From contig JACZXQ010000014.1 of assembly GCA_022571515.1 (NCBI GenBank), positions 27,913 through 91,912 of the forward strand: a stretch of DNA of 64,000 nt, read 5' to 3'. This DNA is from Gemmatimonadota bacterium. Lineage in GTDB: Bacteria > Gemmatimonadota > Gemmatimonadetes > Longimicrobiales > Gaopeijiaceae. Of the stretch, positions 6,131-37,532 are shown piece after piece. Under the pieces are notes generated by a model. The model had not been told where the DNA came from. It searched no databases and was given only the letters and a program-made list of their open reading frames with translations. A program made the position numbers and the translations under genes. Position 1 is the stretch's first letter. Every line of letters starts with the position of its first letter.

Positions 6131-6387
6131 GCACAGGTATACCTCATCCCCGAGGAGCGGGCCAAGTTGGACGAAGCGGCCCGAGAGCTGGCGTGTCCCG
6201 CTCCGAGACTCTGCGGCGCGGCATCGAGACCGTGCAACGCCCACGGGCGGCAGGAGTGTTCCGCGAGCTCGTGGACGAAGGCCTGCTCACACCAGCCCTG
6301 GCTCCCGGCAGCGGCCCACCCCCGTCCGCCCCCGTGGCGACGCTCGAGGTGTTGATGTGCGAGCTCGACGCTGATCGCGCGGAGTGA
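6131..6387 (+). pseudogene. ribbon-helix-helix (CopG/VapB-like) antitoxin, apparently frameshifted
   Basis: The strand/helix-1 part VYLIPEERAKLDEAARELA is in one frame, preceded by TAG and with no start codon. The helix-2 part VSRSETLRRGIETV... is in the frame that ends at TGA 6385-6387. The two join if one base is restored near 6195. Confidence 0.5.
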
Positions 6388-6710
6388 TCATATACCTCGA
6401 CACCTCGGTGGTCCTCGCCCACCTGCTTGCGGAAGACCGGCGTCCTCCGGCCGAGCTCTGGGGCGAGGAACTCGTGGCAAGCCGGCTCTTGGAGTACGAA
6501 CTTTGGACGCGCATTCATGCCCGAGGCCTGGCCCGATCACACTCCGATGCAGTGCGCCTGTCGCTCGCCCGAATCACGTTCTTGGATCTTGGCCGCTCCG
6601 TACAAACGCGGGCGCTCCAGCCCTTCCCGGTCGCCGTCCGAACCATGACGATGTCCCGGGAGGCGCGACCGATCATCGCCCTGTGGGACAGGCCCCACCC
6701 TAGTTCATGA
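6384..6710 (+). CDS. PIN-domain (VapC-like) protein, C-terminal half atypical
   Basis: MIIYLDTSVVLAHLL is a typical PIN N-terminus, and the start overlaps the upstream stop in a 4-nt overlap. The region where the LDALHLA-type acidic motif is expected reads RTMTMSREA. Confidence 0.5.
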   Translation: MIIYLDTSVVLAHLLAEDRRPPAELWGEELVASRLLEYELWTRIHARGLARSHSDAVRLSLARITFLDLGRSVQTRALQPFPVAVRTMTMSREARPIIALWDRPHPSS

Positions 6711-8382
6711 TCACCGACGGCAACGCCACGGGGGCCATCACCTTGTAGATCGGCACCACCGGTGGACCCGCCGGCCCACCTCGGCGACCGCCACGGCCCG
6801 GAGGGCCACCACGGTTGCCAGGCCGGCCACCACGAGCCCCTGCCCCACGCCCACCCGGGCCGCCGTCCCGCCGCCCGGCATTGGCCTGACCGTTGGCCTC
6901 GAGGGCGGCCTTGGGCAGCCACGCGTCCATCGTGTTCCAGTAGACCACGTTGTCGGCCGTCTCCGGCTCCAGCATGTGCGATACCAGACGGCCCAGCATC
7001 TGGCCGGTGGGTACCACGAAGGTGCCGGCCGGGAAGTCCCGCTCGAGCGTCACGACGTCGCCCAACTGGACGCGCACCGCCCCGGCGTGGTTGTAGGCCT
7101 GCTCGTACGTGACACCGGCGAGGGTGTACGCGGTCACCTGCACGGTCGCGGGCCGCGTGAGCACCTCCACGGTAATCCCATGGCGCTGTAGCATCGCCAC
7201 CGCGTCCACGGCGTCTCTGGGAAGCATGTACGCGTACGGCCTTGGCCGAGTCTTGGTGGCGATCGGCCGCTTCATGAGCGAATCACTCTGGACGGTGATC
7301 ACCCGGCGATCATCACCTTCCCCGATCCGGACCTGATACTCCACCGTGTAATCCTCAGGCCCGTACTCCATCTCCACGACGATGTCGCCCCGCGCGCTCA
7401 GACCCATTTCGATGGTCTCGATGCGGGCACGGTTCACCGTCTCGATCAACCGGTCCGCGTTGTCGCGGGCATACTCCAGCACGGCCTTGAACGCGAGAAT
7501 GCCCGACGCGACACCGTCGGACAGCTCCTGGGTCGTCGGCGACTCGAAGAGGATGCCCACAGAGTTGATGAAGCCGCCGTAGTTACGTCCGATGCGAGCC
7601 TCCGAACCTCCACCGTTCCAGCGGGTCTCTGTCCCCCGGCTGTAGTAAAAAGCCTGATAGCCATCGGCCTCCAGCCGAGCGTTGATGGCCGGGAAGATCT
7701 CCTGATCACACAGCAATGTGAGGCGCTGGTCCAGCTCGGCATGGCTGGGGCACTGGTAATTCAGGTTGTAGGGAAAGGCGCCACCGTTGTGTCCATCTAC
7801 GAATACGTGTGGACGCCAGCGTTGGATGACGTGCCGGGCGTACGCCGTGAGCGCCGGCTGCTCGAGCTTGACCCAGTCGCGGTTCATGTCGATGCCCCAC
7901 GCGTTTCCGCGCGTACTCCTGGGTGTCGCCTCGAAACCGTCGGGGTTGATCTGGGGGGCCACGAGGATCACCAGGTCGTCCAGCAGGGCGTTCGCTTCCG
8001 TCCCGGGCGTCGAAAGCTCCCTGATCAAGATCAGCAGGGACTCACGCAGGGTGCGCTCCCCGCCGTGCACGTTCGCGTTCAGAGAGACTACAGGTCGCCC
8101 CAGCACCGCGGCCTCCCACGGCTGGCTCACCAGCGGACGGCTGAAGATCGCATACGGAAGCTCCCTCCCCTCCCGGGACTTGCCGTAGACCCCGAGCCTC
8201 ATATCGGTGCTCGACGCCCGAACCTCGCGGAGGTAGGTCATCATGCTGTCATAGGCCGTGTAGACCGTGAACCCCGACGCCTCCGACTGAGTCCTGAGAT
8301 CCTGGGCGCCAAGCTGGGACGCGCCCAGGAGCGTACTCGCACCCAGCATGACGTGAAGGAAACGGAAACAGAGTGATCTCAT
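6700..8382 (-). CDS. secreted M14-family zinc carboxypeptidase with Gly/Arg/Pro-rich C-terminal tail
   Basis: Signal peptide, NANVHGGERT (HxxE zinc site), GIDMNRDW and DGHNGG. The tail reads GRRDGGPGGRGAGARGGRPGNRGGPPGRGGRRGGPAGPP. Confidence 0.8.
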   Translation of the reverse strand: MRSLCFRFLHVMLGASTLLGASQLGAQDLRTQSEASGFTVYTAYDSMMTYLREVRASSTDMRLGVYGKSREGRELPYAIFSRPLVSQPWEAAVLGRPVVSLNANVHGGERTLRESLLILIRELSTPGTEANALLDDLVILVAPQINPDGFEATPRSTRGNAWGIDMNRDWVKLEQPALTAYARHVIQRWRPHVFVDGHNGGAFPYNLNYQCPSHAELDQRLTLLCDQEIFPAINARLEADGYQAFYYSRGTETRWNGGGSEARIGRNYGGFINSVGILFESPTTQELSDGVASGILAFKAVLEYARDNADRLIETVNRARIETIEMGLSARGDIVVEMEYGPEDYTVEYQVRIGEGDDRRVITVQSDSLMKRPIATKTRPRPYAYMLPRDAVDAVAMLQRHGITVEVLTRPATVQVTAYTLAGVTYEQAYNHAGAVRVQLGDVVTLERDFPAGTFVVPTGQMLGRLVSHMLEPETADNVVYWNTMDAWLPKAALEANGQANAGRRDGGPGGRGAGARGGRPGNRGGPPGRGGRRGGPAGPPVVPIYKVMAPVALPSVIMN

Positions 8383-12584: not shown

Positions 12585-13445
12585 TCAGGCCCCCAACGCG
12601 AGTCCCAGCGCCAAGAGCGCGCCGTACGCGGCCACCAGGCGCGCGGTACCACCGAGAGCCGGGATCAGCTCGCTGGGATCGTCGGTCGTCATGATGCGAG
12701 ACATCGGTCCGATCGCGTACACGCCGGAAGCGAGCGCCAGGAGCGACGTGCGAGGCCATCCGGCCAAAGCCACCCCGAGCAGCGGGACCACGAAGGCGCC
12801 GGCAACGAGCGCAATGTACTGGACGCGGCTACCCGTGCGACCGATGCGGACGGCAAGCGTCCTCTTGCCCACGGCCCGGTCGCTATCGATGTCCCGGAGG
12901 TTGTTGGCCACCAGGATCGCCGTGTTGAGAGCCCCGACTCCGGCTCCGGCCAGAAGCAGATCGGCCGGGAAGTCGAGCGCTTGCACCCAATACGTTCCAC
13001 CCACGGCCACCAGCCCGAAGAACACGAACACGAAGACATCGCCAAGGCCATGATAAGCGAGGGGAAAGGGCCCACCCGTATACGCCACGGCACAGATGAG
13101 CGAGGCCAGGCCGATTACGACGATCGGCCATCCGCCGATCCAGGCCAGATAAACCCCTACGGCGAGGGCCAGCCCGAGCGTCACGAACATGCCGTTGCGC
13201 ACCGCGACGGGGGCGATGAGGCCGGCCTGGGTTACCCGCACGGGACCCACACGCTCCTCTGTGTCCCCGCCGCGCACGAAGTCGTAGTAGTCGTTCGCGA
13301 GGTTGGCGGTGATCTGGATGAGCAGGGCGCCCACCATCGCAGCCGTGGCCGGGAGGACCGTCAGCGCTCCGTGACCCGCCGCGAAGCCGGTGCCCACCAG
13401 TACGGGTGCCGCCGCCGCGCTCAGCGTCTTGGGCCGTATGGCCAA
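12585..13445 (-). CDS. menA: 1,4-dihydroxy-2-naphthoate polyprenyltransferase
   Basis: (M)AIRPKTLSAAAAPVLVGTG...NNLRDIDSDRAVGKRTLAV is UbiA-type. The likely start is TTG at 13443-13445. The upstream part of the track ORF lies antisense-shifted inside menB. Confidence 0.85.
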   Translation of the reverse strand: MAIRPKTLSAAAAPVLVGTGFAAGHGALTVLPATAAMVGALLIQITANLANDYYDFVRGGDTEERVGPVRVTQAGLIAPVAVRNGMFVTLGLALAVGVYLAWIGGWPIVVIGLASLICAVAYTGGPFPLAYHGLGDVFVFVFFGLVAVGGTYWVQALDFPADLLLAGAGVGALNTAILVANNLRDIDSDRAVGKRTLAVRIGRTGSRVQYIALVAGAFVVPLLGVALAGWPRTSLLALASGVYAIGPMSRIMTTDDPSELIPALGGTARLVAAYGALLALGLALGA

Positions 13446-13465
13446 GATCCAGACCGAGATCGGCC

Positions 13466-14302
13466 CTACGGCAGCCAGGGGTACTTCCGAAAGTCCGGTG
13501 GCCGCTTTTCGAGGAAGGCGTTCCTGCCCTCCTGGCCCTGCTCCGTCATGTAGAAGAGCAGCGTGGCGTTGCCGGCCAGCTCCTGCAAACCGGCTTGCCC
13601 GTCCAAGTCGGCGTTGAACGCCGCCTTGAGGCACCGGATGGCCAACGGGCTCTTGTCCAAGATGTCCTGAGCCCACTGCCAACCCTCGGCCTCCAACTCG
13701 GCCACCGGCACCACCTTGTTCACAAGTCCCATGTCGAGCGCTTCCCGCGCGTCGTACTGGCGACAGAGATACCAGATCTCCCGGGCCTTCTTCTGACCGA
13801 CGATCCGGGCCAGGTACGATGAGCCGAAGCCACCATCGAAGCTGCCTACCATGGGCCCGGTCTGGCCGAACACCGCGTTGTCGGCCGCGATCGTCAGGTC
13901 GCACACGACATGCAGGACGTGGCCACCCCCGATCGCGTAGCCGGCCACGAGAGCGATCACCGGCTTGGGCATGGTTCGGATGTAGCGCTGCAACTCGAGC
14001 ACGTTCAGGCGTGGCACACCATCGCTCCCAACGTACCCGGCCTCGCCTCGCACCCGTTGATCACCCCCGGAGCAAAAGGCGTACTTTCCGTCCCCGGCGG
14101 GTCCGTTTCCGGTAAAGAGCACCACGCCGATCGACGTGTCCTCGCCGGCGTCACGAAAAGCCTCGAGGAGCTCGAAAACGGTCTCGGGACGAAACGCGTT
14201 TCGGACCTCCGGCCGGTCGAATGCGATTCGGGCGACTCCGTCGCACTTATGGTAGGTGATGTCTTCAAAGTCCTTCACCACCTCCCAATCGGGCTGCGTC
14301 AT
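13466..14302 (-). CDS. menB: 1,4-dihydroxy-2-naphthoyl-CoA synthase
   Basis: [26 protein letters not shown]...[11 protein letters not shown]...[16 protein letters not shown]. Confidence 0.95.
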
Positions 14303-16089
14303 GCCAACACTCCTTTTCCTAGCTCAACCTTCACTGCGGCCGCCACGGCCGACACGACGTCCTGGCGGCGCCTGTAGCTCATCTCGCGGTCGAGCGGAAC
14401 TTCCAGAATCGCAGGGCCTTCTGTGTTCATTGCGTCCTCCAATGATTCCCCCAGGTCCTGGCTGCTCGTCACACGCCAATACGGAATCCCGTAGAGCTGC
14501 GCGACGCCACGGAAGTTGATCCCATGCGGTGTCAGGAAGTAGGACGTGAATTCCGGCTCGTGCTCGCGGATCGGTAACGCCTGAAAAATCCCACCTCCGT
14601 CATTGTGAATCACGATGAAGCTGACGTCGAGGCCGTACTTCGCCGCCGCGAGCAGCCCATTCATGTCGTGGTACATCGCGATGTCGCCCAGCACCGCGAC
14701 GGTCTTCCTGCCTGTTCCGACCTGCACCCCGAGGGCGCTGGACACAATGCCGTCGATCCCGCTCGCTCCTCGGTTTCCGTAGACGTGGACAACCTTGTCG
14801 GTCGGAGCCACGAACGCATCCAGATCCCTGACCGGCATGCTGTTGGATATGAAGAGGTTCCCATCGGTGGCAAGGCCGGCCACCGCCACCGCCACGACCA
14901 CTCCCTCGAACAAGCCTGCGGAAAGCGTCGTCTGGACCTCTGCTTGGGTGACTTCTTCTACGCGGGCCCATCCCTTTCGCCAGGAGTCCGAGGCGATCGC
15001 GTTGCTGAGACGGCCGCTCACGGCCTGGAGAAACTCGGCAGCGTCGGCCTCCACGTACTCACTGGCCACTGAAAGATGGTCCTTCCAGCGCCCCCCCGGA
15101 TCGATCACGACCTGGCGGGCCTCGGTGCTCTCTGCAAAGAGGCTGGCAAGCGACGCCGACGTCGGTGTGGCTCCTACGCGCAGAATCAGGTCCGGCCGCA
15201 TGCGCTTGCGGATGTCGGGGTCCCGCAGAAACAGGTCGTAGCCGCCGATCACGCTCTTGCAAGCACCCCCGAAACGCGCACCAGACAAAGGGTCGGCCAG
15301 GAGCGGGAACCCCGTCGCCGCGGCAAGACGCCCGGCCGCCATCCCGGTCTCATCCGGCGCCGCATTCGCGCCCACCACGATGATCCCGTTGCGCCGACTC
15401 CGACACAACTTTGCGACATGCTCCACGGCATCGCTCGGCACCGAGCGAGACCCCCGCACCACCCTCACGTAGGGATCCTCCTCCTGCCACCCACCGGGTT
15501 CACGCGTGACAGGACGCCCGCCAGGAGGATCCCCATCCGGACCGGACACGGGCTCGAGAGGCTTGGCAAACGGGAAGTTAAGATGCACGGGACCTGCCGG
15601 CGGGCCGGCCGCCACACTCACAGCGCGAGCGGCGAGCGTGCGGAGGTGCCGAAGCGCGGGCTCATCCGTGCTGGGTGGCGCCACCTCGTGGAACTCGCGC
15701 ACCTGCGTTCCGAACAGCCTGACTTGGTCGATCGCCTGGTTGGCGTCCGCGGCCCGAAGGCGATGGGGACGGTCGGCGGTCAGTACGATGAGCGGCACTT
15801 CGGCATGGAAAGCCTCGATAACCGCGGGGTGCAGGTTCGCGGCCGCCGTGCCGGACGTGGTGATAACCGCTGCGGGCATGCCCGTGGCACGTCCAATGCC
15901 CAGCGCGAAGAAACCTGCGGACCGCTCGTCGAGGTGCACGAAACGCTCGAAGCGGTCGTCTCTGGCCACGGCCATGACAAGGGGCGTCGAGCGAGATCCG
16001 GGTGCGATACAGACGTGGCGGACCCCGCAGGCCGCCAACTCCTGAACGAAGGCACGGGCCCAGGGAGTGTTCGCTCCACCAGGGTTCAC
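14299..16089 (-). CDS. menD: SEPHCHC synthase (ThDP-dependent)
   Basis: [31 protein letters not shown]...[10 protein letters not shown]...[12 protein letters not shown]. The GTG start overlaps the menF TGA (GTGA), and the stop overlaps the menB ATG. Confidence 0.9.
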
Positions 16090-19474: not shown

Positions 19475-19882
19475 CTAGGCCGGAAGCGCGCATTGGATCG
19501 ACCGCTCGCGACGTAGAAGCTCCGCCCCGGAGACCGTCAGCAGCACGTTCTTCCCCACCGTGACCCAGGGGGGCAGTGCCACCATGGTCCCAAGACAGCC
19601 ACAGCTTTCCCAGCCGGCAAGGGTTGCGCCCAGGCTCCCCACGAGGAACGCCGTCAGGAGTGCCAGCACGGCCCGATACACCGAGAGCCGGGGATACCCC
19701 ACCAGCGCCACCACCGCAGCGGACTCCACCATGACCAGACCGGCAGCGAGGAGCAGGCCGGCACGCAGGGAGACGGCGAGTCGCGCCGCGAAGAAGGCCC
19801 CGGCACCCTGGAGGTCCAACCCCTTGGCGAGGGCGCTGGCCATGAGAGCCGTGACGAGGACTGCCCGAAGGAAGGTGCTCAT
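19475..19882 (-). CDS. MauE/DoxX-family redox-associated membrane protein
   Basis: 135 aa with about 4 TM segments and LAKGLDLQGAGAFF plus the WESCGCLG motif typical of MauE-type proteins. Its ATG overlaps the upstream stop (ATGA). It is hidden in the distal part of track ORF 19475..20173. Confidence 0.7.
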   Translation of the reverse strand: MSTFLRAVLVTALMASALAKGLDLQGAGAFFAARLAVSLRAGLLLAAGLVMVESAAVVALVGYPRLSVYRAVLALLTAFLVGSLGATLAGWESCGCLGTMVALPPWVTVGKNVLLTVSGAELLRRERSIQCALPA

Positions 19883-20544
19883 ATGCCCAACCGCCGAAGA
19901 TAGAGAACGAGCCCCACCTGAAGGGCGTTGAACGTGAAGAAGAGCCCGCCCACGACGATGGCAGCCGCGCGTCGCCGGACGCCTTCCGTCCGCGCCAGCC
20001 CCGTGTAGAGGACGCCGAACCAGACCAGCTCGAACGCGGACAAGGATCCCGCCAGGGCGCTGGCGGATGCCTGGAGGCCAGGGAAGAATGTGTGAAGCGT
20101 GCCCAGCGGCCGATAGAACGCCTCTGCCGTGACGGCAGGCCCGTCGAGACCGGCCCGGTACCACAGTACCCACGCCAGTTGAGCAGCCAAGACCACCTGG
20201 GCCACGACAGCCACCCGGAACAGCCTGGCAAACGGCGCTTCATGGTTCTGGAGTGCCAAAGACAGTTGCAGGAGCAGCGCCACCAGCCCGACTTGGACCG
20301 CCAGTACGATGGGAGTGATGAGGTAGGACCAGCCGGCCATGCGCCGATAGAGGGCCCACTGGCGATCCATACCGACTCCGTCCATGGAGCCCTCCAGGAG
20401 CAGATCGTGGATCTGCCGTGCCATGACCACGTCCCTCGAAATCCAGTTCATCACCAGGTAGGCGAAGACGAGCCCAAGGAGAACCTGAAGCGTCGATACA
20501 TGGACCGGACCCAAGGATCGCGGCCAGGGGTAGCGTCGAGTCAT
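19879..20544 (-). CDS. polytopic membrane protein of unknown function (candidate immunity/accessory protein)
   Basis: 221 aa from Met47 of the track ORF (MTRRYPWPRSLGPVHVSTLQVLLGLVFAYLV...), with about 5 hydrophobic segments. It starts 11 nt after the exporter stop. No family recognised. Confidence 0.55.
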   Translation of the reverse strand: MTRRYPWPRSLGPVHVSTLQVLLGLVFAYLVMNWISRDVVMARQIHDLLLEGSMDGVGMDRQWALYRRMAGWSYLITPIVLAVQVGLVALLLQLSLALQNHEAPFARLFRVAVVAQVVLAAQLAWVLWYRAGLDGPAVTAEAFYRPLGTLHTFFPGLQASASALAGSLSAFELVWFGVLYTGLARTEGVRRRAAAIVVGGLFFTFNALQVGLVLYLRRLGI

Positions 20545-20555
20545 CTCGGCGCTGT

Positions 20556-22727
20556 TCACGGGTGCAGTCCAGGAGTGAGAGTTTCTGCAGCCACGCTGGC
20601 GAGTTCGAGGTGGGGCGGTTCGGAGCGTGGGGGTGCCCCGGGGCGGATCTGGCCACCGGAGAGCACAAAGATACGATCGCACTGCTCAAGGGTGTGGACG
20701 TCGTGCGACACCATCAGGATTGCATGATCCGCAGCATAGCGGCGTAACAGCTCACCCACCGCGAGCGCCGTCTCGGAATCGAGGGCATTGGTCCCCTCAT
20801 CGATCAGGAGCACCGCGGGCTCGTCCAGGAGAGCGCGCATCAGACCGACGAACTGACGCTCACCGGAGGACAGCCGGCGTCCCGCCTCTCCCACCAAGGT
20901 CCCGAGGCCGTGTGGAAATCGGTGCAGATGCCCCTCCAGGCCGACCTCCCGGAGGCGTTCGATCAACCGCGGCAGCTCCGCACCGCTCCGGCCCAGGAGA
21001 ATGTTGTCGGCGATGGTACCATGGAGAAGCTTCGCGTCCTCCGGAACCACGACCACGTTGCGGCGCCATGACTCCAGTTCCACGGCCTCGGCCGGCTGTC
21101 CGTCTAGTAGTAAGCTTCCAGCCGTCACGGAGTAGCTTCGGTCCAGGATCCGCACCAGTGTGCTCTTCCCCGATCCGTTTCGCCCCCAAAGGCCCACGAG
21201 CTCTCCCCGGTGAACATCAATGCTCGCTCCCTGGAGGATGGGCGGCGCTCCCGGCCAACCGAAGTGCACGTCGCGCAGGGTCACGGAGCGGCGGAGAACC
21301 AGTGGGCGACCCTCGTGGACGACCTCCGCCTCGGCGTGCAGGATATCGAAAAGCCTCTGCGCGGCCGCGGAGGCCTGACGCAACGCGATGTGCATCTCGG
21401 CCAGACGACCCACTGAGGGCAACATGGCTGCGAGGAGGGCATAGACGGCGAGCATCGCTCCTAGCGCGATCTGGTCGGCGAGGACGAGCACTGCACCGCT
21501 GAGCAGTACGCACACCACGACGGCGTTAGCGGCCAGCTCGGCCAGCACGCCGATGCGGGCCTGGGTCGTAGCGAAGTGGGCGAGGCGCCCCTGGAAAGTG
21601 CGATGGTACGCGGAGTTCAACCGCGCGAAGAGCGTGGCTGCGTTGAAGCTCCGCACCTCACGGGCGCCAAGGATGCCGTCCAGGGACGAGGCCTGGAGAG
21701 CGCCGTACGACTGAAGGACCTCCCGCTGCTGCGACCTCACGGACCGGGTCGTCCACGCCACCAGGCCGCCGTACACCGGCACCGCGGCGACGGCGATCCA
21801 GGCCAGAGGGGGCGCGAAGAGGAAGGCCGCGCCGATGGAAGCCGGCACCACCAGGAGGTCTACCACCGCACCGCCGGCGAGGAGGAAGACCGCGTTCTGC
21901 ACCACCACGGCGTCATCCACGCGAGCGGCGATGTCCCCTGCCTTGCGTCGGTCAAAGAAGGCCACAGGAAGGCGAAAGAGGTGGGCGAAAAAGTCGTCGA
22001 TCATCCCCACGCTCACCCGCTCGCGGAGGCCTATGAGGAACCTCTGGCGGAGGAGGTTCACGCCCGCCCGGATTCCCTGGATCCCGAGGAGCAGCAGACC
22101 CGTGAGAAGCAGAAGGTCGAGTTCTCGACGGGGAATGAATCGATCGACGGTGGCTTGGATAAAGAGAGCGGTCAGCAGGCCCAGGGCCGTGTAGGCGGCT
22201 CCCAGAAAGGCGGACTGCACGAGCCAGGTATGCTCCAGCCGCACGTACGCCCACAGCCACCCGGTCCATGGCTCGGGACGGCTCTTCGCGATCTCCTCGC
22301 CTGGCTCCAAGAGGAGAACAGTTCCGTCCCGCCACATCTCCTCGAACCGGCTCCGAGTGAGAGATCGGAAGCCCTGAGCGGGGTCCATGATCAGCACTCC
22401 GTCGGGTCGTGCCTCGTACACCACGACGAAGTGCGCCTGGCCGTCGTCCAGGACCACGTGGGCGATGCACGGGAGCGCGACCTCCTGGAGTGAGATGTAG
22501 TCTCCACGGGCACCGGAGGCCTGGAGCCCGACCGCCTGAGCGGCCTCCGCGATCCCAGCCAGGGAGCTACCGTCCGAGCCCGTGCCCGAGAGTTCCCGGA
22601 GCCTGGGAAGGGGCAGCTCCCCCCCGTGGTATCGGAGGACACTGAGAATCGCCGCCGGCCCACAGTCGGTTCTCTCGTTTTGAAGCACGATAAGCGTCTT
22701 CGGAAGTCTCATGGTCCAGGGTCTCAT
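20556..22727 (-). CDS. peptidase-C39-domain ABC exporter (bacteriocin/double-glycine peptide processing-export type)
   Basis: N-terminal LQNERTDCGPAAILSVLRYHGG...AHFVVVYE...MDPA (Cys/His/Asp of C39), a six-TM domain, Walker A GRNGSGKST, signature LSSGERQ and Walker B LLIDEGTNALD. The start is ambiguous (ATG 22727 or 22712; the track uses GTG 22772). Confidence 0.9.
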   Translation of the reverse strand: MRPWTMRLPKTLIVLQNERTDCGPAAILSVLRYHGGELPLPRLRELSGTGSDGSSLAGIAEAAQAVGLQASGARGDYISLQEVALPCIAHVVLDDGQAHFVVVYEARPDGVLIMDPAQGFRSLTRSRFEEMWRDGTVLLLEPGEEIAKSRPEPWTGWLWAYVRLEHTWLVQSAFLGAAYTALGLLTALFIQATVDRFIPRRELDLLLLTGLLLLGIQGIRAGVNLLRQRFLIGLRERVSVGMIDDFFAHLFRLPVAFFDRRKAGDIAARVDDAVVVQNAVFLLAGGAVVDLLVVPASIGAAFLFAPPLAWIAVAAVPVYGGLVAWTTRSVRSQQREVLQSYGALQASSLDGILGAREVRSFNAATLFARLNSAYHRTFQGRLAHFATTQARIGVLAELAANAVVVCVLLSGAVLVLADQIALGAMLAVYALLAAMLPSVGRLAEMHIALRQASAAAQRLFDILHAEAEVVHEGRPLVLRRSVTLRDVHFGWPGAPPILQGASIDVHRGELVGLWGRNGSGKSTLVRILDRSYSVTAGSLLLDGQPAEAVELESWRRNVVVVPEDAKLLHGTIADNILLGRSGAELPRLIERLREVGLEGHLHRFPHGLGTLVGEAGRRLSSGERQFVGLMRALLDEPAVLLIDEGTNALDSETALAVGELLRRYAADHAILMVSHDVHTLEQCDRIFVLSGGQIRPGAPPRSEPPHLELASVAAETLTPGLHP

Positions 22728-22742
22728 TTGGGTATGCGCGGT

Positions 22743-22767
22743 CCCGGGGGGCAAAGCACCCCCCGGG
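22743..22767 (-). terminator. GC hairpin between precursor gene B and the exporter gene (attenuator/stabiliser candidate)
   Basis: The arms cccgggggg (22743-22751) and ccccccggg (22759-22767) are perfectly complementary, with a 7-nt loop. There is no U-tract. Confidence 0.4.
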
Positions 22768-22779
22768 GGCACGTCGCGT

Positions 22780-22932
22780 TCAGCAGAGTAGAGCGCCGCC
22801 AGCCAAACCGATTAGGCAGGCCCCTAGCATAAGACTCGCGCAGGAGATGTTAGTGACGATATTCAGCATCATGCACAGTTTTGCGTTTCCGCCATGCACA
22901 TCCTGCATTTCTCGCAGTGTAAGGTCGGTCAT
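22780..22932 (-). CDS. double-glycine-leader precursor peptide B (50 aa)
   Basis: MTDLTLREMQDVHGG|NAKLCMMLNIVTNISCASLMLGACLIGLAGGALLC. GGAGAA SD 6-7 nt upstream of the ATG at 22930-22932. This is the last 50 codons of track ORF 22780..23160. Confidence 0.75.
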   Translation of the reverse strand: MTDLTLREMQDVHGGNAKLCMMLNIVTNISCASLMLGACLIGLAGGALLC

Positions 22933-22990
22933 GATATTTTCTCCATGTGCTTTAGTGCCGTCTTCGACGGACACCTCGTTGTTGGGGGGG

Positions 22991-23016
22991 GGAGGGAGAC
23001 GTGAGCCCCTCCCTCC
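22991..23016 (-). terminator. hairpin between precursor genes A and B (attenuator/stabiliser candidate)
   Basis: ggagggag (22991-22998) pairs with ctccctcc (23009-23016), giving an 8-bp stem and 10-nt loop. It starts 11 nt after the peptide A stop. On the mRNA it is followed by a C-run, not a U-run. Confidence 0.4.
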
Positions 23017-23026
23017 GGCTCGCGCA

Positions 23027-23179
23027 TCAGAAGGAGCAGAGCGCCACACCTCCCACCAGACCGAGCCCGCAGGCCCAAAGAAACCCGACCATGCAGGAGA
23101 TGGCTGTGATTGCTGCCAGGGTGGCGCAATTCGTGCCACCCTGGATCTGCAGCATCTCATGCGTTGTGAGCGTTGTCAT
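23027..23179 (-). CDS. double-glycine-leader precursor peptide A (50 aa)
   Basis: MTTLTTHEMLQIQGG|TNCATLAAITAISCMVGFLWACGLGLVGGVALCSF. GGAGGA SD 7 nt upstream of the ATG at 23177-23179. This is the last 50 codons of track ORF 23027..23506. Confidence 0.75.
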   Translation of the reverse strand: MTTLTTHEMLQIQGGTNCATLAAITAISCMVGFLWACGLGLVGGVALCSF

Positions 23180-23252
23180 GGTAATTCCTCCATCGGGAAT
23201 CGAGTTGCAGATTCGCTCCCGCCGAACGCGGGACGCGTGGGGCGCCGGGTGA

Positions 23253-23801
23253 TCAACCGGTGCTGCCCCTCGTTGAAGCCTCCGGAGCTCCAATCTTGTG
23301 TAGCCCAGCCAAGAGGGCGTCCAGCGTCTTCTGACCGAGCACTTTTCTAAGTAGGGTGCGCTGGCGTCCGAACACATAAAGCCCAGGTGTGCCCGGCAGG
23401 GGGAACGCCTCCTCGAGGGCGGCGTCGTCGGAGAGGACCCACTGGACTCGCGGAGACGAGGCGAGAGCCGGCCAATCCTCACGGAGCAGATCCACGACCT
23501 CCGCATCCTCGTCGGTGACCAGCGCGAGGGTCAGATCGAGTGTGGCGAACCGCTCCACGTCACCCTCGAGCATGCGCAGTTCTTCCACACATGCCGAACA
23601 GGTGGTGTGATAGACCATGACGACGAGTCGCGATGCCCCCCCTGTTCGGAACGTCGTGCCAACGCCCTCCAGGGTCCGGATCTCCAGGTCGGGCAGAACC
23701 GAGCCCAGTGGCATGGGGTCGGGCTTCGCCGCCTCCAAGAGGAGCCAGCCTGCAAGTAGCAACATCGTCACCGTCACTGTAGCTGCGAGAACTCTTCGCA
23801 T
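23253..23801 (-). CDS. membrane-anchored TlpA/ResA-like thioredoxin-fold oxidoreductase (MauD-like)
   Basis: N-terminal TM (VTVTMLLLAGWLLL), then LPDLEIRTLEG...LVVMVYHTTCSACVEEL with a CxxC in a redoxin context. Confidence 0.75.
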   Translation of the reverse strand: MRRVLAATVTVTMLLLAGWLLLEAAKPDPMPLGSVLPDLEIRTLEGVGTTFRTGGASRLVVMVYHTTCSACVEELRMLEGDVERFATLDLTLALVTDEDAEVVDLLREDWPALASSPRVQWVLSDDAALEEAFPLPGTPGLYVFGRQRTLLRKVLGQKTLDALLAGLHKIGAPEASTRGSTG

Positions 23802-23816
23802 CGGGCGATCCCCCTG

Positions 23817-24536
23817 TCAGTCCTCAACCAGTCGGCCGCGCTGACAGCGCAAGTGGGCCACGGCCGTGAGAACGGCGATGAGCACGAGAACCTGAGCCAC
23901 ACCCAGGAATACCACCTCGGGAGTCAGTTCGGTGGGGACGTATCCCTCGAAGGTTTCGCTCCACTCCGGGGGGATGAGCGCTCCCACCATGGCCGGGCCG
24001 AGCATGGCGGCTATCACGATCATCGCCAGGGTTTCCGAGGCTCGTCTCCCAGTGGGCACGTGGAGGGAGACCAGCACGCCGACCACCGTGACAAGGGCGG
24101 CGGCCAGTAGGCTTGCGGCGGCGGCCGCCAGGAGCACGCGCGCGTCGGCGCCTCCACCGCGAAGGACGCCCAGGACGACGCCGACGCCGGTGACGGCTAT
24201 GGCGATGCTCCAACCGTAGAGCACGTTGGCGATGATCTTGCCCAACAGGAGGCCTCGATCGGAGATGCGGCTGGCCAGCAAGGTCTCCAGGGTGTGGTGC
24301 TCCCTCTCTCCCGCGAAACTGTCACCTACCACCGGGAGGATGAACAACACGGCCAGAAGGGCGGAAACGATCGGCGTTATGCTGGACCTGCCAAAGTCTG
24401 GGCCCACGACCTGGGATACGACCAGGCCGAGAACCGCGAGGATTCCCAGCCGGGCGATGCCAAAGAACCTGCCGCCTTCTTGCCGGAAGAACTCGACCCA
24501 CTCTTTCCGGATCATTGCCGAGACGTCCTGGATCAT
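23817..24536 (-). CDS. ABC-2 type transporter permease
   Basis: 239 aa with six hydrophobic segments. Its start overlaps the ATPase stop (ATGA at 24533-24536). Confidence 0.7.
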   Translation of the reverse strand: MIQDVSAMIRKEWVEFFRQEGGRFFGIARLGILAVLGLVVSQVVGPDFGRSSITPIVSALLAVLFILPVVGDSFAGEREHHTLETLLASRISDRGLLLGKIIANVLYGWSIAIAVTGVGVVLGVLRGGGADARVLLAAAAASLLAAALVTVVGVLVSLHVPTGRRASETLAMIVIAAMLGPAMVGALIPPEWSETFEGYVPTELTPEVVFLGVAQVLVLIAVLTAVAHLRCQRGRLVED

Positions 24537-25468
24537 GTCTCATCCTCCAGAAGCGAGAGGAACACCTCTTCGAGCGACGCAGCGAAGCCCCGGACCTCGG
24601 AGATCTCCACGCCACGGCCGACCAGGAGCGCCACCAGCGGCGGAGCGTCAGCGCCTTCGGCCAGGTCGATCCTGAGGACGTCGCCGTCCAGGGCAACGTC
24701 CAGCACGTCGGGCCGGGCCCTGATATCGGCGACGATTTCGGGTGTCATGCCCGAACCGACCACTTCCACACCGGGCCTCGTAGCTCGCCGCCGCAGTTCC
24801 TCGGGGACGCCCATGGCCAGGAGGCGGCCCTCGCGGAAAATCCCCACCGAGTCGCAGATCTGCTCCGCCTCGCCGAGGTTATGCGTCGTCAGGAACACCG
24901 TGACATCTTCGGCCCGCACCAGGCGAAGAAGATCCTGGCGGAGTGCCGCCGCCGAGCGGGCATCCAACCCCGCCGTGGGCTCGTCCAGGAGAAGGAGGCT
25001 CGGCCGGTGCATCATGGCGCGGGCGATGGCCAGCTTCTGTTTCATGCCCTTGCTCCACGTGGAGACGCGGTCTCCACGGCGCTCCCAGAGCTCGAAGCCC
25101 TCGAGAAGCTCCTGCATCCGTGCCCTGGCCTCCACACAGCCCATCCGGTTGATACGCGCATAGAAGTCGAGGTTTTCGACAGCGGTCAGGCGCTCGTAAA
25201 GCCCGTGGTGCTCCAGGAGCGCCCCACACTCCGCCCTCACCGTCTCCCCCTCACGGCTGGGATCGCGCCCGAAGATCAGTGCGCGACCTCCCGTCGGCTC
25301 GAGCAGGCCGAGGAGGAGCCGGAGGGTCGTGGTCTTTCCGGCGCCATTGGGACCGAGGAATCCGAACACGGAGTTTCGGGGCACCACGAGGTCCAGGTGA
25401 TCCACTGCTCTGAGGGCCCCGAAGTCCCGAGTCAGACCCTCGGCGTGAACAGCTGGCCCGGCGCTCAT
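24533..25468 (-). CDS. ABC transporter ATP-binding protein (ABC-2/DrrA-like)
   Basis: Walker A GPNGAGKTT, signature WSKGMKQKL, Walker B LLLLDEPTAGLD and H-loop TTHNL. Confidence 0.9.
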   Translation of the reverse strand: MSAGPAVHAEGLTRDFGALRAVDHLDLVVPRNSVFGFLGPNGAGKTTTLRLLLGLLEPTGGRALIFGRDPSREGETVRAECGALLEHHGLYERLTAVENLDFYARINRMGCVEARARMQELLEGFELWERRGDRVSTWSKGMKQKLAIARAMMHRPSLLLLDEPTAGLDARSAAALRQDLLRLVRAEDVTVFLTTHNLGEAEQICDSVGIFREGRLLAMGVPEELRRRATRPGVEVVGSGMTPEIVADIRARPDVLDVALDGDVLRIDLAEGADAPPLVALLVGRGVEISEVRGFAASLEEVFLSLLEDET

Positions 25469-25581
25469 TTGCTTCCGCCGAGGAGTGCGTACGCCTGGCC
25501 TGGCCCAACCTCCAGATTCACATCGATCAGAGCGGAAATCGAGCCATAGCTCTTGTGAACGTGTCGTGTGCTAAGGTGCAT
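25465..25581 (-). pseudogene. 38-codon N-terminal remnant of a second ABC ATPase
   Basis: My own translation gives MHLSTRHVHKSYGSISALIDVNLEVGPGQAYALLGGSK*. It stops where Walker A should begin, and its TGA overlaps the ATG of the intact ATPase gene. Confidence 0.45.
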
Positions 25582-34805: not shown

Positions 34806-37532
34806 CTATTCAGGCACGACGCTTACCGGGCACACCTTGAGTTCGGCGGTCTGGGTAATGGGGTCGTATCCACCACCCGTAAGCGCATTCACCGGAACGT
34901 CGGCAAAGCTGAAGGTCGTAAACACCGTGCCGCGTGGCGACCGTTTGGTGGCCTTCACGCGCACGCGCACCGAGCCTCGCCGGCTCGACATGATCGCCCA
35001 TGACCTGTCGGCCAGGCCCCACTCATCGACATCGTCGGGGTGGATCTCCAGCGACTCCTCCGACAGCAGGTAGTCGATGCCTGCCGAGCGCCCGGTCTGG
35101 GTACGCGTATGGTACGACGCCAGGCGGCGGCCCGTGGTGAGCCAGACGGGGTAGTCATCGTCCACCGTCTCGGCAGGATCGCGCTGCTCCACGAGATTGA
35201 AGATCCCCCGTCCGTTCACGAACTCGTCGGAGTGCAGCATCGGGGTCCCTGGGTGGCCGTCGAAGGGAACCGGCCACTGATACGCGCCCTCTTCGACCTT
35301 GTCCCAGTCGACGCCGTGGTAGATGGGCGATACCTCGCAGAGCTCGTTGAAGACCTGCTCGGCGCCCTCGTACTCGAAGCCCTGGAACCCCATGCGCTTC
35401 GCGAGCGCCGAGATCACCCACCAGTCGGGCCGCGCTACTCCGGGCGAGGGGACCGCGGCTCGGAGACGCTGGATCCGCCGCTCGGTGTTGGTCTGCGTGC
35501 CGTCCACTTCACCCCAAGCGGCCACGGGGAACACCACGTCCGCAAGCTCCGCGGTCTCGGTCAGGAAGAGGTCGGCGACGACCAGGAAATCGAGGCTTCT
35601 CAGGGCCTTCTCGCAGTGCGCTCGATCGGGGTCCGACACCAGCGTGTTCTCGCCATCGATGAACATCGCTCGAATCTGATCGCCGCACATCTCGAGGGCG
35701 GTCACCTTGGTGATGCCATTCTCGAGATCCACCTTCTTGCCGTACAACTTCTCGAACTTCTCCTGGTTCTCGGGATCGGTGACCGGCTGGAAGCCTGGAT
35801 AATTGTTCGGAAGGGCGCCCGCATCGCCCGCGCCCTGGATGTTGTTCTGGCCGCGCATCGGATTGATGCCGGTGCCCTCGCGGCCGATGTTGCCGGTCAT
35901 CAACACCAGGTTGCACAGGCCCTGCACGTTCTCGACACCGCAGATGTGCTCGGTCACACCTAGCGTGTAATAGATCGCGCCGCGCTCTGCCCGCCCGTAC
36001 CAGAGCGCTGCCTGTTCGATGTCGGCCGCCGGTACGCCCGTGATCTCTTCCGCCCACTCCGGCGGGAAGCGCTCCACGTGCTCGAGGAAGGCCATCCCTT
36101 CCGTCGTGCGGGCGTCCATGAAGGCCTGATCCACCAGCCCTTCACGCGCGATGACGTGCGCCATCCCGAGCAACAGGGCCGAGTCGGTACCGACCCTGAG
36201 CGGCAGGTAGACGTCCGCCAGGTCCGCGAGCACGATGTGCCGGGGGTCGGCGACGATCAGCTTCGCACCGTTGGCGAGGGCCCTCTTGATGCCCGTCGCC
36301 GCGACCGGATGACACTCCGTCATGTTGGTCCCGATGCAGAAGATCACATCGGGCTTGTCCATGTCCGCCAGCGGGTTCGACATGGCGCCCCGACCGATGC
36401 TTGCCGCCAGACCGGCGACGGTGGGGGCGTGTCAAGCACGGCTGCAGTTGTCGATGTAGCTCGTCCCCAGCCCCGCCCGCACAAACTTCTGCATCATGTA
36501 GGCGGCCTCGGTGGGCGCCCGCCCCGATGCCACCACGTAGAGGCTGTGCCGCCCGTGGTTGTCGACAGCCGCGAGCAGCCCCGCCGCCGCCTTGTCGAGG
36601 GCGTCGTCCCAGGTGGCGGGGTGAAGCTGGCCGTCGTCTCCGCGGACCAACGGCGTATCCAACCGGTCCTTGTGTCCGATGAAGTCGAAGGCGAATTGAC
36701 CCTTCACGCACAGCGCGCCGTGATTCGCGGGCCCATCCATGGCCGGCAGCACACCCACGACCTGATCGCCCCGCGTCATGAGATCGACGCTGCATCCCAC
36801 GCCGCAGTAAGGACAGATGGTGCGCGTGAGCTTGGTTTCACCCGGCACGTCCTTGCTTGCGAGCGCCTTCAAGTCGGCGAGCGCCCCCGTCGGGCAGGTC
36901 TGGATGCACTGCCCACAGAAGGTGCACGCCGAGTCTTTGAGGATTCCATCGAACTCGGTGGTGATCTGCGTTCCGAATCCCCGGTTCATCACGCTGATGG
37001 CGTAGTCGCCCTCCTGCTCGGCGCAGACCCGCACACACCGGAAACAGGAGATGCAGTTCTCATAATCCCGGAGGATGAAGGGGTTGGGGTCGTCCGGGTG
37101 GCTTGTGCCGGACTGCATACCGAGAAAGCGGCCGGTGCGCGCGTCGTAACGGTCGAGCAGCGTCGCCATCTCCCCCGACGCGTAGCCGCTCATCGGATCG
37201 ACGTCCAGATCGCGATTCTCTGACGCGACCAACTCCAAGAGCACGCGCCGATGCATGTCCAAGCGGCCACTCTTGGTGGTCACCTTCATGCCCGGGGCGG
37301 CCTTGGTCGTACACGAAGCCACCGGATTGTGGCTGCCCTCGACCTCGACGATGCACAGCCGGCATCCGCCGAAGGGCTCTAACCGCTCATCGTAGCAGAG
37401 TGTCGGGATCTCGCGCCGGTAGCGCTCCGACACCTCGTAGACGGTCTCACCCGGGGTAAAGCCGACGTCCTCTCCGTCCAACGTCATCGTGGAGAGCGCG
37501 CCGTTTCCCCCACCGTCGATGTTATCGCTCAT
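34806..37532 (-). CDS. fdhA: formate dehydrogenase catalytic subunit (FdsA/FdhA type with N-terminal 2Fe-2S/4Fe-4S domains), selenocysteine-containing
   Basis: Track ORFs 36432..37532 and 34806..36383 are in the same frame and are separated only by TGA 36432-36434. The read-through gives ...YIDNCSRA-U-HAPTVAGLAASIGRGAMSNPL, aligning with the ..ARV(U/C)H.P(S/T)VAGL...G.GAM(S/T)N active-site motif of formate dehydrogenases. Confidence 0.85.
36403..36419 (-). promoter_or_regulatory. SECIS-like hairpin 12 nt downstream of the in-frame UGA
   Basis: The mRNA reads GUCGCC-GGUCU-GGCGGC (6-bp stem including one G-U pair). The apical GGUC-containing loop resembles the E. coli fdhF SECIS mini-helix. 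Confidence 0.55.

Follow-up and report, generated by a model that had tools for sequence, protein, structure and literature searches.

A Gemmatimonadota gene cluster with a bacteroidetocin-type export core, a candidate operon for four-cysteine peptide bacteriocins

Introduction

The genetic region for bacteroidetocins encodes a protein with five transmembrane (TM) segments, a four-cysteine peptide with a 15-aa double-glycine (GG) leader, a thiol oxidoreductase and an ATP-binding cassette (ABC) exporter with a C39 peptidase domain (Coyne et al. 2019, PMC6671954). In that work, iterative tblastn searches with the peptides served to define the family. Activity was attenuated when the TM protein, the peptide or the oxidoreductase was deleted, sufficiency of the four genes was addressed by cloning them into E. 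coli, no gene for immunity was identified and the TM protein did not confer immunity (PMC6671954). Here we describe a minus-strand gene cluster at positions 19475-25581 of a 64,000-nucleotide stretch of Gemmatimonadota DNA (contig JACZXQ010000014.1, positions 27,913 to 91,912), a stretch called the window below. The cluster encodes a core of this kind, namely two GG-leader precursor peptides, a C39 exporter, a 5-TM protein and a membrane-anchored thioredoxin-fold protein, together with a MauE-type membrane protein and an ABC-2 pump. We think it likely that it is an operon for one or two class-II-type peptide bacteriocins, carrying disulfides only, built on the bacteroidetocin core.

Several other systems combine peptide export with thiol chemistry or with small membrane proteins. 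The sublancin operon of Bacillus (sunA-sunT-bdbA-sunS-bdbB) sets a dedicated thioredoxin-like protein and an integral-membrane thiol oxidase beside a C39 exporter, and its product is a helix-loop-helix with two nested disulfides. For a class II bacteriocin, the thioredoxin-like accessory protein PedC/PapC is reported to see that its four cysteines pair correctly. MauD and MauE form the classical pairing in the maturation of methylamine dehydrogenase. MauE proteins replace DsbB in E. coli, with their CXC motif as the active site; quinone binding by MauE is likely, and in 8 % of cases MauE is fused to a domain of the thioredoxin superfamily (preprint 10.64898/2026.03.05.709764). In B. subtilis, the ABC transporter YknWXYZ, which handles the peptide toxin SdpC, has as its fourth component YknW, a protein of the Yip1 type (PMC4338810).

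Results

Relation to the bacteroidetocin machinery

With the bacteroidetocin A and B sequences from the supplement of Coyne et al., we reached a B. xylanisolvens locus (L007) whose bacteroidetocin A gene is 100 % identical. The open reading frame (ORF) directly upstream of that gene (L007 6311-6973) matched a hidden Markov model (HMM) of the relatives of the window 5-TM protein with an E value of 1.7e-14, and hhalign against the window 5-TM family gave 86 % with an E value of 5.5e-6 over 181 columns; the direct pairwise comparison with the window protein was not significant, and the link holds at the profile level. L007 7239-7754 encodes a 171-aa anchored oxidoreductase with a CDFC motif that matches the window thioredoxin (BLASTP E 8e-9) with anchor and CxxC in register, and the L007 exporter is 27 % identical to the window exporter over its full length. 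From these matches of TM protein, oxidoreductase and exporter, we conclude that the window core is homologous to the bacteroidetocin machinery. The peptides themselves show no sequence similarity (precursor B against bacteroidetocin A, E 0.89). Since four of the five testable features of a bacteroidetocin-type region are found here and peptide similarity is lacking, the machinery is shared and the product is not a bacteroidetocin.

A preliminary description of this DNA, made from the sequence alone, had not recognised the combination of genes as any characterised bacteriocin system and had left the 5-TM protein unassigned. Both statements need revision: the core is that of the bacteroidetocin region, which has been dissected experimentally (PMC6671954), and the 5-TM protein shares its family with the product of the TM gene adjoining bacteroidetocin A and appears to be a divergent Yip1/YknW-type protein. 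Its further remark that no such system has been studied in this lineage agrees with the literature searched, in which none is described from Gemmatimonadota. The term "class IIf", proposed for the bacteroidetocins, was used, in the same literature, only in the original paper.

The window shares with bacteroidetocins the four-part core and cysteine-containing peptides with a 15-aa GG leader, and like them it lacks a membrane-fusion or outer-membrane gene and a small immunity gene (PMC6671954; Matano et al. 2021, PMC8546649). The two differ in host phylum (Bacteroides/Prevotella there, Gemmatimonadota here), in the presence of two precursors here, in gene order (exporter then 5-TM protein in the window; TM protein, peptide, oxidoreductase, exporter in bacteroidetocins), in the character of the cores (uncharged and very hydrophobic as opposed to basic and aromatic) and in cysteine spacing (10-7-10 as opposed to 9-1-24 for A and 8-1-24 for B). 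The window adds MauE and the ABC-2 pump, and the BamA target of bacteroidetocins should not be assumed here. Both hosts are diderms of the Fibrobacteres-Chlorobi-Bacteroidetes (FCB) group. What is new in this locus is the Gemmatimonadota host, the added MauE, the added DrrA-type ABC-2 pump and an unrelated cargo with the framework C-x10-C-x7-C-x10-C.

Layout of the cluster

The features of the cluster are as follows, in transcription order.

25465-25581, minus: 38-aa ORF, probably a relic ABC ATPase N-terminus; 4-nt overlap with the start of the following gene; function doubtful
24533-25468, minus: DrrA-type ABC ATPase of an ABC-2 pump, 311 aa (ABC_tran 5e-30, DrrA1-3_C 2e-6, TIGR01188 9e-76)
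23817-24536, minus: ABC-2 permease, 239 aa, six hydrophobic segments (ABC2_membrane_2 2e-11); ATGA overlap with the ATPase gene
23253-23801, minus: membrane-anchored thioredoxin-fold thiol-disulfide oxidoreductase, 182 aa, active site C68-S-A-C71
23027-23179, minus: precursor A, 50 aa, with a 15-aa double-glycine leader and an uncharged 35-aa core, Cys at core positions 3/14/22/33
22991-23016, minus: GC-rich stem-loop with a 9-bp stem just 3' of the precursor A stop; C-run after it, no U-tract
22780-22932, minus: precursor B, 50 aa, with a 15-aa double-glycine leader and a 35-aa core with one Lys, Cys at core positions 5/16/24/35
22743-22767, minus: perfect 10-bp GC stem-loop between the precursor B stop and the exporter gene; no U-tract
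20556-22727, minus: peptidase-containing ABC exporter (PCAT), with C39 peptidase, 6-TM ABC membrane domain and nucleotide-binding domain
19879-20559, minus: 5-TM accessory protein without Cys, 221 aa (start 20544) or 226 aa (start 20559) according to gene callers
19475-19882, minus: MauE-type membrane protein, 135 aa, four hydrophobic segments, E-S-C-G-C-L-G motif

The eight same-strand genes of the preliminary description were all recovered from the ORF list of the window at the coordinates it gave, and profile searches, the check that it had proposed, reproduced each of its family assignments. The intergenic gaps, in transcription order, are -4, 15, 73, 94, 52-67, -4 (or 11) and -4 nt, so that the largest is 94 nt and not about 75 nt as had been stated. 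Both ATGA overlaps that had been reported are present (ATPase/permease and 5-TM/MauE), and a possible GTGA coupling at the exporter/5-TM junction can be added to them. The block is flanked by a divergent tdh/kbl pair on one side and a convergent PD40-repeat gene on the other, with BlaI also in the flanks. The window is part of a 113-kb contig from a soil-type, Longimicrobiales-like Gemmatimonadota genome, and housekeeping proteins that match its own at 90 % identity or more carry the labels of Gemmatimonadota or Longimicrobiales metagenome-assembled genomes. The locus recurs on 23 contigs, which come from several samples and all show the same flanks; 11 contigs compared over 6.4 kb differed by eight single-nucleotide polymorphisms, none of them in the precursors. 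Antisense and overlapping long ORFs in the cluster gave no Pfam match and are taken as high-GC artefacts. An Rfam scan of the window found no RNA family, and scans for sigma-70 promoters and intrinsic terminators gave scores no better than those of shuffles.

Precursor peptides

We scanned the whole 64 kb with a regular expression for a GG leader followed by a core of 25-60 aa, and scanned 200 Markov-1 random sequences in the same way. The expression matched exactly two ORFs in the window, precursors A and B, both directly upstream of the C39 exporter gene, while the random mean was 0.01 per window and 0/200 sequences held two or more matches. Shine-Dalgarno-like motifs precede both genes (GGAGGA 6 nt 5' of the precursor A ATG, GGAG 5' of precursor B), and the two precursors are paralogues with 48 % identity. 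As had been pointed out at the start, they are the tails of longer ORFs, being the in-frame ends of 23027-23506 and 22780-23160; public gene callers nonetheless annotate both as 50-aa genes, on 17 contigs for A and 16 for B, across three pipelines.

The position of each small ORF inside a longer one, in a genome of 65 % GC, is what one would expect if they were products of chance and the substrate of the exporter were encoded elsewhere, and it fits this explanation that neither has a database family match above cut-off and that a metagenome scan with both peptides found no relatives. We regard this explanation as effectively refuted. Against a chance expectation of 0.01 per window stand two observed ORFs, both in the slot upstream of the PCAT gene, each with a Shine-Dalgarno-like motif, mutually paralogous, annotated as genes by three independent pipelines and represented in a related locus, L024, by an orthologue with an identical Cys framework.

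The original characterisation of the products as two nearly uncharged four-cysteine GG peptides is borne out. The cores carry 0 (A) and 1 (B) charged residues and four Cys each, in the common framework C-x10-C-x7-C-x10-C, and the leader positions are canonical in both (L-12, E-8, M-7, I/V-4, G-2, G-1). Both cores are extremely hydrophobic, with a grand average of hydropathy (GRAVY) of 1.6-1.7. For the leaderless cores, each holding two disulfides, the predicted monoisotopic mass is 3428.65 Da in the case of A and 3490.74 Da in that of B. Precursor B has the lowest GC of the cluster (0.53, with 0.61 at third codon positions, GC3), precursor A has 0.60 and the neighbouring genes 0.64-0.69 (GC3 0.72-0.82); the low value of precursor B could reflect amino-acid composition or a different history.

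AlphaFold2 modelled the core of precursor B as a helix (2-18), a break and a second helix (21-34), with a pLDDT of 78 and a hairpin geometry in which C5 lies near C35 and C16 near C24. Because the predicted hairpin juxtaposes these two pairs, nested disulfides as in glycocins (C1-C4, C2-C3) are plausible for the cores. Foldseek found no match to the peptide model in the PDB. Among family profiles, the precursors gave weak matches to PF10439 (Bacteriocin_IIc, E 0.0024) and TIGR03949 (E 0.022), falling short of the family cut-offs (18.2 vs 27.1 bits and 14.6 vs 21.5 bits), and the cores can be read as carrying small-xxx-small helix-packing motifs, as in two-peptide bacteriocins. With class IIb and Bacteriocin_IIc peptides of the lactobin A-cerein 7B kind, the window has in common two adjacent GG-leader genes of equal length and Gly/Ala-rich small-xxx-small cores; it differs from them in its scores below the cut-offs, in four Cys per peptide and in a dedicated oxidative folding pair.

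The stem-loop after precursor A could play a role in mRNA stability or attenuation; the z-score of its centroid structure is weak (-1.45). For the stem-loop after precursor B z was -2.5, and 2/200 shuffles folded as well. Directly 3' of the precursor stop in L024 there is likewise an inverted-repeat sequence, judged by eye. As a separate observation, the poly-C tract near 22992, in the hairpin after A, varies in length by one base among 11 near-identical contigs, through slippage or as an assembly artefact.

Conservation in related loci

The gene order of L024 (71 % GC) is that of the window: ATPase, permease, thioredoxin, a 50-aa precursor, PCAT, 5-TM protein and MauE, with identities to the window, in that order, of 59, 37, 34, 44, 49, 38 and 30 %. 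Its precursor has the core KVAWCKALKLVTFGSCLGGLIYACVLGGVGEALLC, in which the Cys positions (5/16/24/35) coincide with those of precursor B. Seven loci besides L024 have the pair of exporter and 5-TM protein together with GG-leader peptide genes. In L009-L014, the PCAT gene is followed by the 5-TM gene in every case (family HMM E 1e-40 to 1e-82); a window-like thioredoxin occurs in L010, L012 and L013, MauE in L009, L010 and L012, and the ABC-2 pair in L010 and L013. These six loci carry 1-13 GG-leader genes each, whose Gly/Ala-rich hydrophobic cores have exactly two Cys, one near each end, and several peptides of related loci give weak Bacteriocin_IIc matches. Over 13 independent loci, the invariant core consists of the PCAT, the 5-TM protein and Cys-containing GG peptides, and the thioredoxin is frequent. 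The absence of MauE and ABC-2 from many related loci makes them accessory and not essential. We regard ABC pumps and MauE as interchangeable additions to the core. The preliminary description had made its proposal depend on conservation of the small ORFs and of their neighbourhood. Both are conserved, L024 keeping the order and the Cys framework and L009-L014 sharing PCAT, 5-TM protein and GG peptides.

Two related loci deserve mention in their own right. L010, from farmland soil, holds 13 GG-leader peptide genes in two arrays (6375-7101 and 13265-15769) with at least four sequence types; all the peptides have exactly two Cys, and the arrays flank a complete set of thioredoxin, ABC-2, PCAT, 5-TM, MauE and ABC-2 genes, a very large bacteriocin-like arsenal. 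In Arenibacter sp. GZD96 (L004 5934-10309), a GT2 (glycosyltransferase family 2) gene lies directly upstream of the genes for 5-TM protein, Redoxin and PCAT, with a Bacteriocin_IIc-like two-Cys peptide nearby; in Flavobacteriaceae, the machinery may thus also exist in a variant that resembles glycocin systems.

Exporter and 5-TM protein

The exporter matches the Pfam families Peptidase_C39 (1e-31), ABC_membrane (3e-29) and ABC_tran (6e-26), and it retains the oxyanion residue Q16, the catalytic C22/H99/D115, Walker A/B, the ABC signature and the H-loop. Gene callers place its start at 22712 (718 aa). It has the domains of a PCAT and falls below the equivalog cut-offs of both TIGR03796 and TIGR01193, which places it outside both named subfamilies. 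We found about 65 relatives at 37-54 % identity, and those traced belong to Gemmatimonadales, to Longimicrobiales-like organisms or to Calditrichota. We considered and rejected an NHLP/TIGR03796-type system, for which the score is far below cut-off and a second ABC subunit and HlyD are missing. An enzyme-modified peptide of ribosomal origin (RiPP; lanthipeptide, sactipeptide, NHLP and so on) was also rejected, as the cluster holds only transport and thiol-redox genes and its flanks tdh/kbl, PD40 and BlaI. The same applies to a glycocin, for which no SunS-type glycosyltransferase gene is present at 19475-25581 on either strand.

The 5-TM protein of the window has itself no Pfam or NCBIfam match. 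A word-indexed homologue search returned only the protein itself, and the profile version returned few members, but exhaustive HMMER over 1.84e9 representatives found 114 full-length relatives (~220 aa; clusters at 50 % identity). Of these, 40 had E values below 1e-10, and organisms of high as well as of low GC are represented. In 13 out of 13 independent loci examined, the 5-TM gene adjoins a PCAT gene, and Bacteroidota contigs show the string small ORF(s), 5-TM protein, Redoxin (~175 aa) and C39 ABC exporter. Nine of 51 family members match Pfam Yip1 (PF04893) over the full length, one of them above the cut-off (33.5 vs 28.6 bits), and 15/51 match NCBIfam YknW_fam (NF052650), with a best E value of 2e-7. 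The family is thus probably a divergent and remote Yip1/YknW branch, an assignment that reaches the window protein through other family members. AlphaFold2 gave a confident five-TM model (pLDDT 93), for which Foldseek against the PDB found no fold match (best E 0.73).

The precedent of YknW and the translational coupling to the PCAT gene suggest, by analogy, that the 5-TM protein may be an accessory subunit of the export step. In YknWXYZ, a small polytopic Yip1-family protein is encoded with a peptide-toxin-handling ABC transporter and acts with it (Yamada et al. 2012; PMC4338810), an arrangement that resembles that of the 5-TM protein and the PCAT. The difference is that YknW partners a MacB-type pump and a membrane-fusion protein in resistance, whereas the partner in the window is, by position, the producing PCAT. 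A side observation on this family is that the 5-TM gene of L009 (5452-6140) is split into ORFs of 175 aa and 48 aa that both match the family, as a frameshifted pseudogene or through an assembly error.

Thioredoxin and MauE

As a single sequence, the thioredoxin-fold protein matches AhpC-TSA at E 0.003, with 17.7 bits against a Pfam cut-off of 26, but a profile built from it and its locus-linked relatives matches solved structures of the ResA/StoA/YkuV type at about 1e-11. Seven of nine family members match AhpC-TSA at E ≤ 0.01 (best 3.4e-11), and C68 and C71 of the CxxC, Glu98 and cis-Pro139 are invariant in the alignment. An N-terminal TM segment (residues 4-22) follows the residues MRR, and with this anchor the catalytic domain should face the periplasm. 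Fold, CxxC, cis-Pro and N-terminal anchor are thus all those of a TlpA/ResA/DsbE-type protein. A metagenome scan with this protein found only a truncated variant of L024.

The MauE-type protein matches PF07291 with 27.1 bits against a cut-off of 27, and the N-terminus of BT_3928_fam at 2e-7. Its motif follows E-x-C-G-C-[FL]-G, which is invariant in the cluster-linked MauE proteins of L009, L010, L012 and L024. Given that MauE proteins can replace DsbB and that MauD and MauE are a classical pairing, thioredoxin and MauE make a credible private DsbA/DsbB-like pair, in which the window MauE would be a DsbB-like re-oxidiser of the thioredoxin. With MauD/MauE the window shares a CXC MauE, a membrane-anchored CxxC thioredoxin-fold protein and a periplasmic substrate with several disulfides. 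The window thioredoxin differs in being ResA/TlpA-like, with no NCBIfam MauD or thioredoxin-family match, the substrate differs in consisting of 35-aa peptides, and the MauE motif reads CGC-L-G as opposed to the usual CGC-F-G. The likeness to sublancin and the glycocins extends over the GG-leader peptide, the C39 exporter and the operon-encoded thioredoxin-like protein and membrane thiol oxidase; the window oxidase is MauE and not a DsbB homologue, a glycosyltransferase is missing, a Yip1-like 5-TM protein is present and the host is a diderm. PedC/PapC, by description, is also a thioredoxin-like accessory encoded with a C39 exporter, in a Gram-positive host, for a YGNGV-type peptide and with neither MauE nor a Yip1-like protein.

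The pair could also work in the opposite direction, as a reductive or isomerase system that keeps the peptides reduced until release or detoxifies peptide that re-enters the cell. The nearest solved relatives of the thioredoxin (ResA, StoA, CcmG-like) are mainly extracytoplasmic reductases, and synthetic bacteroidetocins, made without disulfide-forming steps, were fully active (PMC6671954). However, native bacteroidetocins run as disulfide-bonded forms and depend on the oxidoreductase for activity (PMC6671954), MauE supplies oxidising equivalents in place of DsbB (preprint 10.64898/2026.03.05.709764), and the symmetric Cys framework kept between orthologues argues for structural disulfides. 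We therefore consider a reductive or isomerase role improbable, and favour oxidative folding by the thioredoxin and MauE.

ABC-2 pump and the upstream end of the cluster

Orthologues of the ABC-2 ATPase occur in the same kind of cluster in L024 (59 % identity), L010 (E 9e-104) and L013 (4e-97), and relatives of the permease in the same three loci. We propose that the pump may serve self-protection. It could also be an unrelated neighbour, so that the block would consist of two side-by-side units, a peptide module from thioredoxin to MauE and a DrrA-type efflux pump with another substrate. ABC-2 pumps are ubiquitous, L009, L011, L014 and every Bacteroidota locus lack this one, and the relic ATPase fragment upstream shows that this end of the block has been rearranged. 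Against two separate units, the ATPase and permease pair (E 1e-104, 1e-33) recurs in the PCAT/5-TM clusters of L010, L013 and L024 at only 37-59 % identity, and in L024 it has the same position and order as in the window. In addition, the permease-thioredoxin gap is only 15 nt, on the same strand and with no terminator-like site between the genes, and other related loci have different ABC modules at the same place, as expected of interchangeable immunity pumps. On this evidence we hold separate units to be unlikely and keep the pump within the proposed operon.

The 38-aa ORF at 25465-25581 translates as MHLSTRHVHKSYGSISALIDVNLEVGPGQAYALLGGSK, followed by a stop that falls within the Walker A region. 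It shows weak similarity to ABC ATPase N-termini of related loci (pairwise E 8e-6), has its closest counterparts in the 255-aa ATPases encoded ahead of the PCAT in L014 and L012, and was called as a gene by the Logan gene caller; its end is the right-hand end (25581) that the preliminary description gave to the cluster. It is probably the relic N-terminus of an ABC ATPase, and such a truncated ORF suggests that a second ABC module has been lost.

Independently of the window, the Gemmatimonadota-type loci L009 (886-3269), L012 (5658-8004) and L014 (5604-8004) carry, immediately upstream of the PCAT gene, a recurrent pair of genes, one for an ABC ATPase of 255-267 aa and one for an unannotated protein of 520-543 aa in which 8-10 segments are hydrophobic. 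This pair may be an alternative immunity pump whose permease has no Pfam family.

Elsewhere in the window (34806-37532, minus), two ORFs of 366 aa and 525 aa lie in one frame, separated by a TGA at 36432-36434 within YIDNCSRA*HAPTVAGL, where the asterisk marks the TGA. We take this to be the site at which molybdoenzymes of the formate dehydrogenase alpha type classically carry selenocysteine. The gene is apparently split in public annotation, where the N-terminal part is named "(2Fe-2S)-binding protein"; it is probably a selenoprotein gene.

Discussion

The preliminary description proposed that this cluster serves the export and oxidative folding of Cys4 peptides. Our analysis supports that functional reading and does not support the novelty claimed for the system. 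The steps that we envisage begin with translation of the two 50-aa precursors. The C39 domain would recognise the 15-aa leader and cut after GG by means of Cys22/His99/Asp115, and the transporter would carry the hydrophobic core of 35 aa through the inner membrane. At the periplasmic side of that membrane, the anchored ResA/TlpA-like thioredoxin (CSAC) would oxidise the four Cys to two disulfides, most likely nested (C1-C4, C2-C3), that staple a helix-turn-helix hairpin. The CGC motif of MauE would then re-oxidise the thioredoxin and pass electrons to quinone, the two proteins forming a private DsbA/DsbB-like pair. The Yip1/YknW-like 5-TM protein, whose gene is translationally coupled to that of the exporter, would act as an accessory subunit of export, and the DrrA-type ABC-2 pump would protect the producer by clearing its membrane of the hydrophobic peptides. 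In this scheme we infer the antibacterial activity, the disulfide connectivity, the partnership of thioredoxin and MauE, the function of the 5-TM protein and the part that the ABC-2 pump plays in immunity. Each step has precedent, and no new principle is involved.

The same machinery might export peptides that are not weapons, such as signals or structural or regulatory peptides of the envelope, with the ABC-2 pump serving their turnover or release. The extremely hydrophobic, uncharged cores, unlike the basic bacteroidetocins, would suit such a function, as would the lack of an outer-membrane export component in the cluster and of an evident dedicated small immunity protein, and C39 exporters also process pheromones in ComA/ComC-type systems. 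On the other hand, the cluster and its flanks hold neither a sensor kinase nor a response regulator gene, and the homologous core genes in Bacteroides make a proven toxin (PMC6671954). Several related peptides give weak Bacteriocin_IIc matches, and the cores have small-xxx-small motifs like those of two-peptide bacteriocins. Related loci with arrays of up to 13 diversified paralogues, as in L010, suggest a pattern that is expected of toxins and not of signals. We give a non-weapon function a small share of probability and prefer bacteriocin production.

Several points weigh against a bacteriocin operon of the kind proposed. The cluster has no membrane-fusion or outer-membrane component, which leaves release across the outer membrane of a diderm unexplained. 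In the ResA/TlpA/DsbE group to which the thioredoxin belongs, most of the characterised proteins are reductases, and redox direction cannot be read from sequence. The cores are unlike bacteroidetocins, being far more hydrophobic and uncharged, so that target and activity cannot be transferred from Bacteroides. The TM protein of Bacteroides gave no immunity, and the accessory role that we assign to the 5-TM protein is an analogy; moreover, Yip1 or YknW is matched directly by other members of the family and not by the window protein. MauE and ABC-2 are missing from many related loci. Finally, the population compared here is near-clonal and so carries no selection signal on the small ORFs, about which these data therefore say nothing.

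A wider proposal joins two ideas: that the cluster makes a new type of bacteriocin, with paired uncharged helical hairpins and nested disulfides installed by MauE and thioredoxin, and that the 5-TM protein is an obligatory partner of the C39 exporter across FCB diderms. We offer this combination tentatively, and consider it rather doubtful as a whole. If it were true, the newly recognised MauE pathway would have in these peptides its first dedicated peptide substrate from nature, and the 5-TM protein of Bacteroidota, Gemmatimonadota and possibly Calditrichota would stand where membrane-fusion protein and TolC stand in the export of proteobacterial microcins.

Descriptions of the bacteroidetocin machinery have so far been confined to Bacteroidetes; the machinery belongs to a far larger, unannotated family (114 5-TM clusters) that reaches environmental Gemmatimonadota. 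To our knowledge, this phylum has few cultured members and no studied bacteriocins. The essential TM protein of bacteroidetocins may be a Yip1/YknW-like accessory of an ABC exporter, which is a testable idea, and the locus is a possible natural and genetically linked client for the MauE disulfide pathway. Its C-x10-C-x7-C-x10-C peptides offer a new hydrophobic scaffold for antimicrobial discovery.

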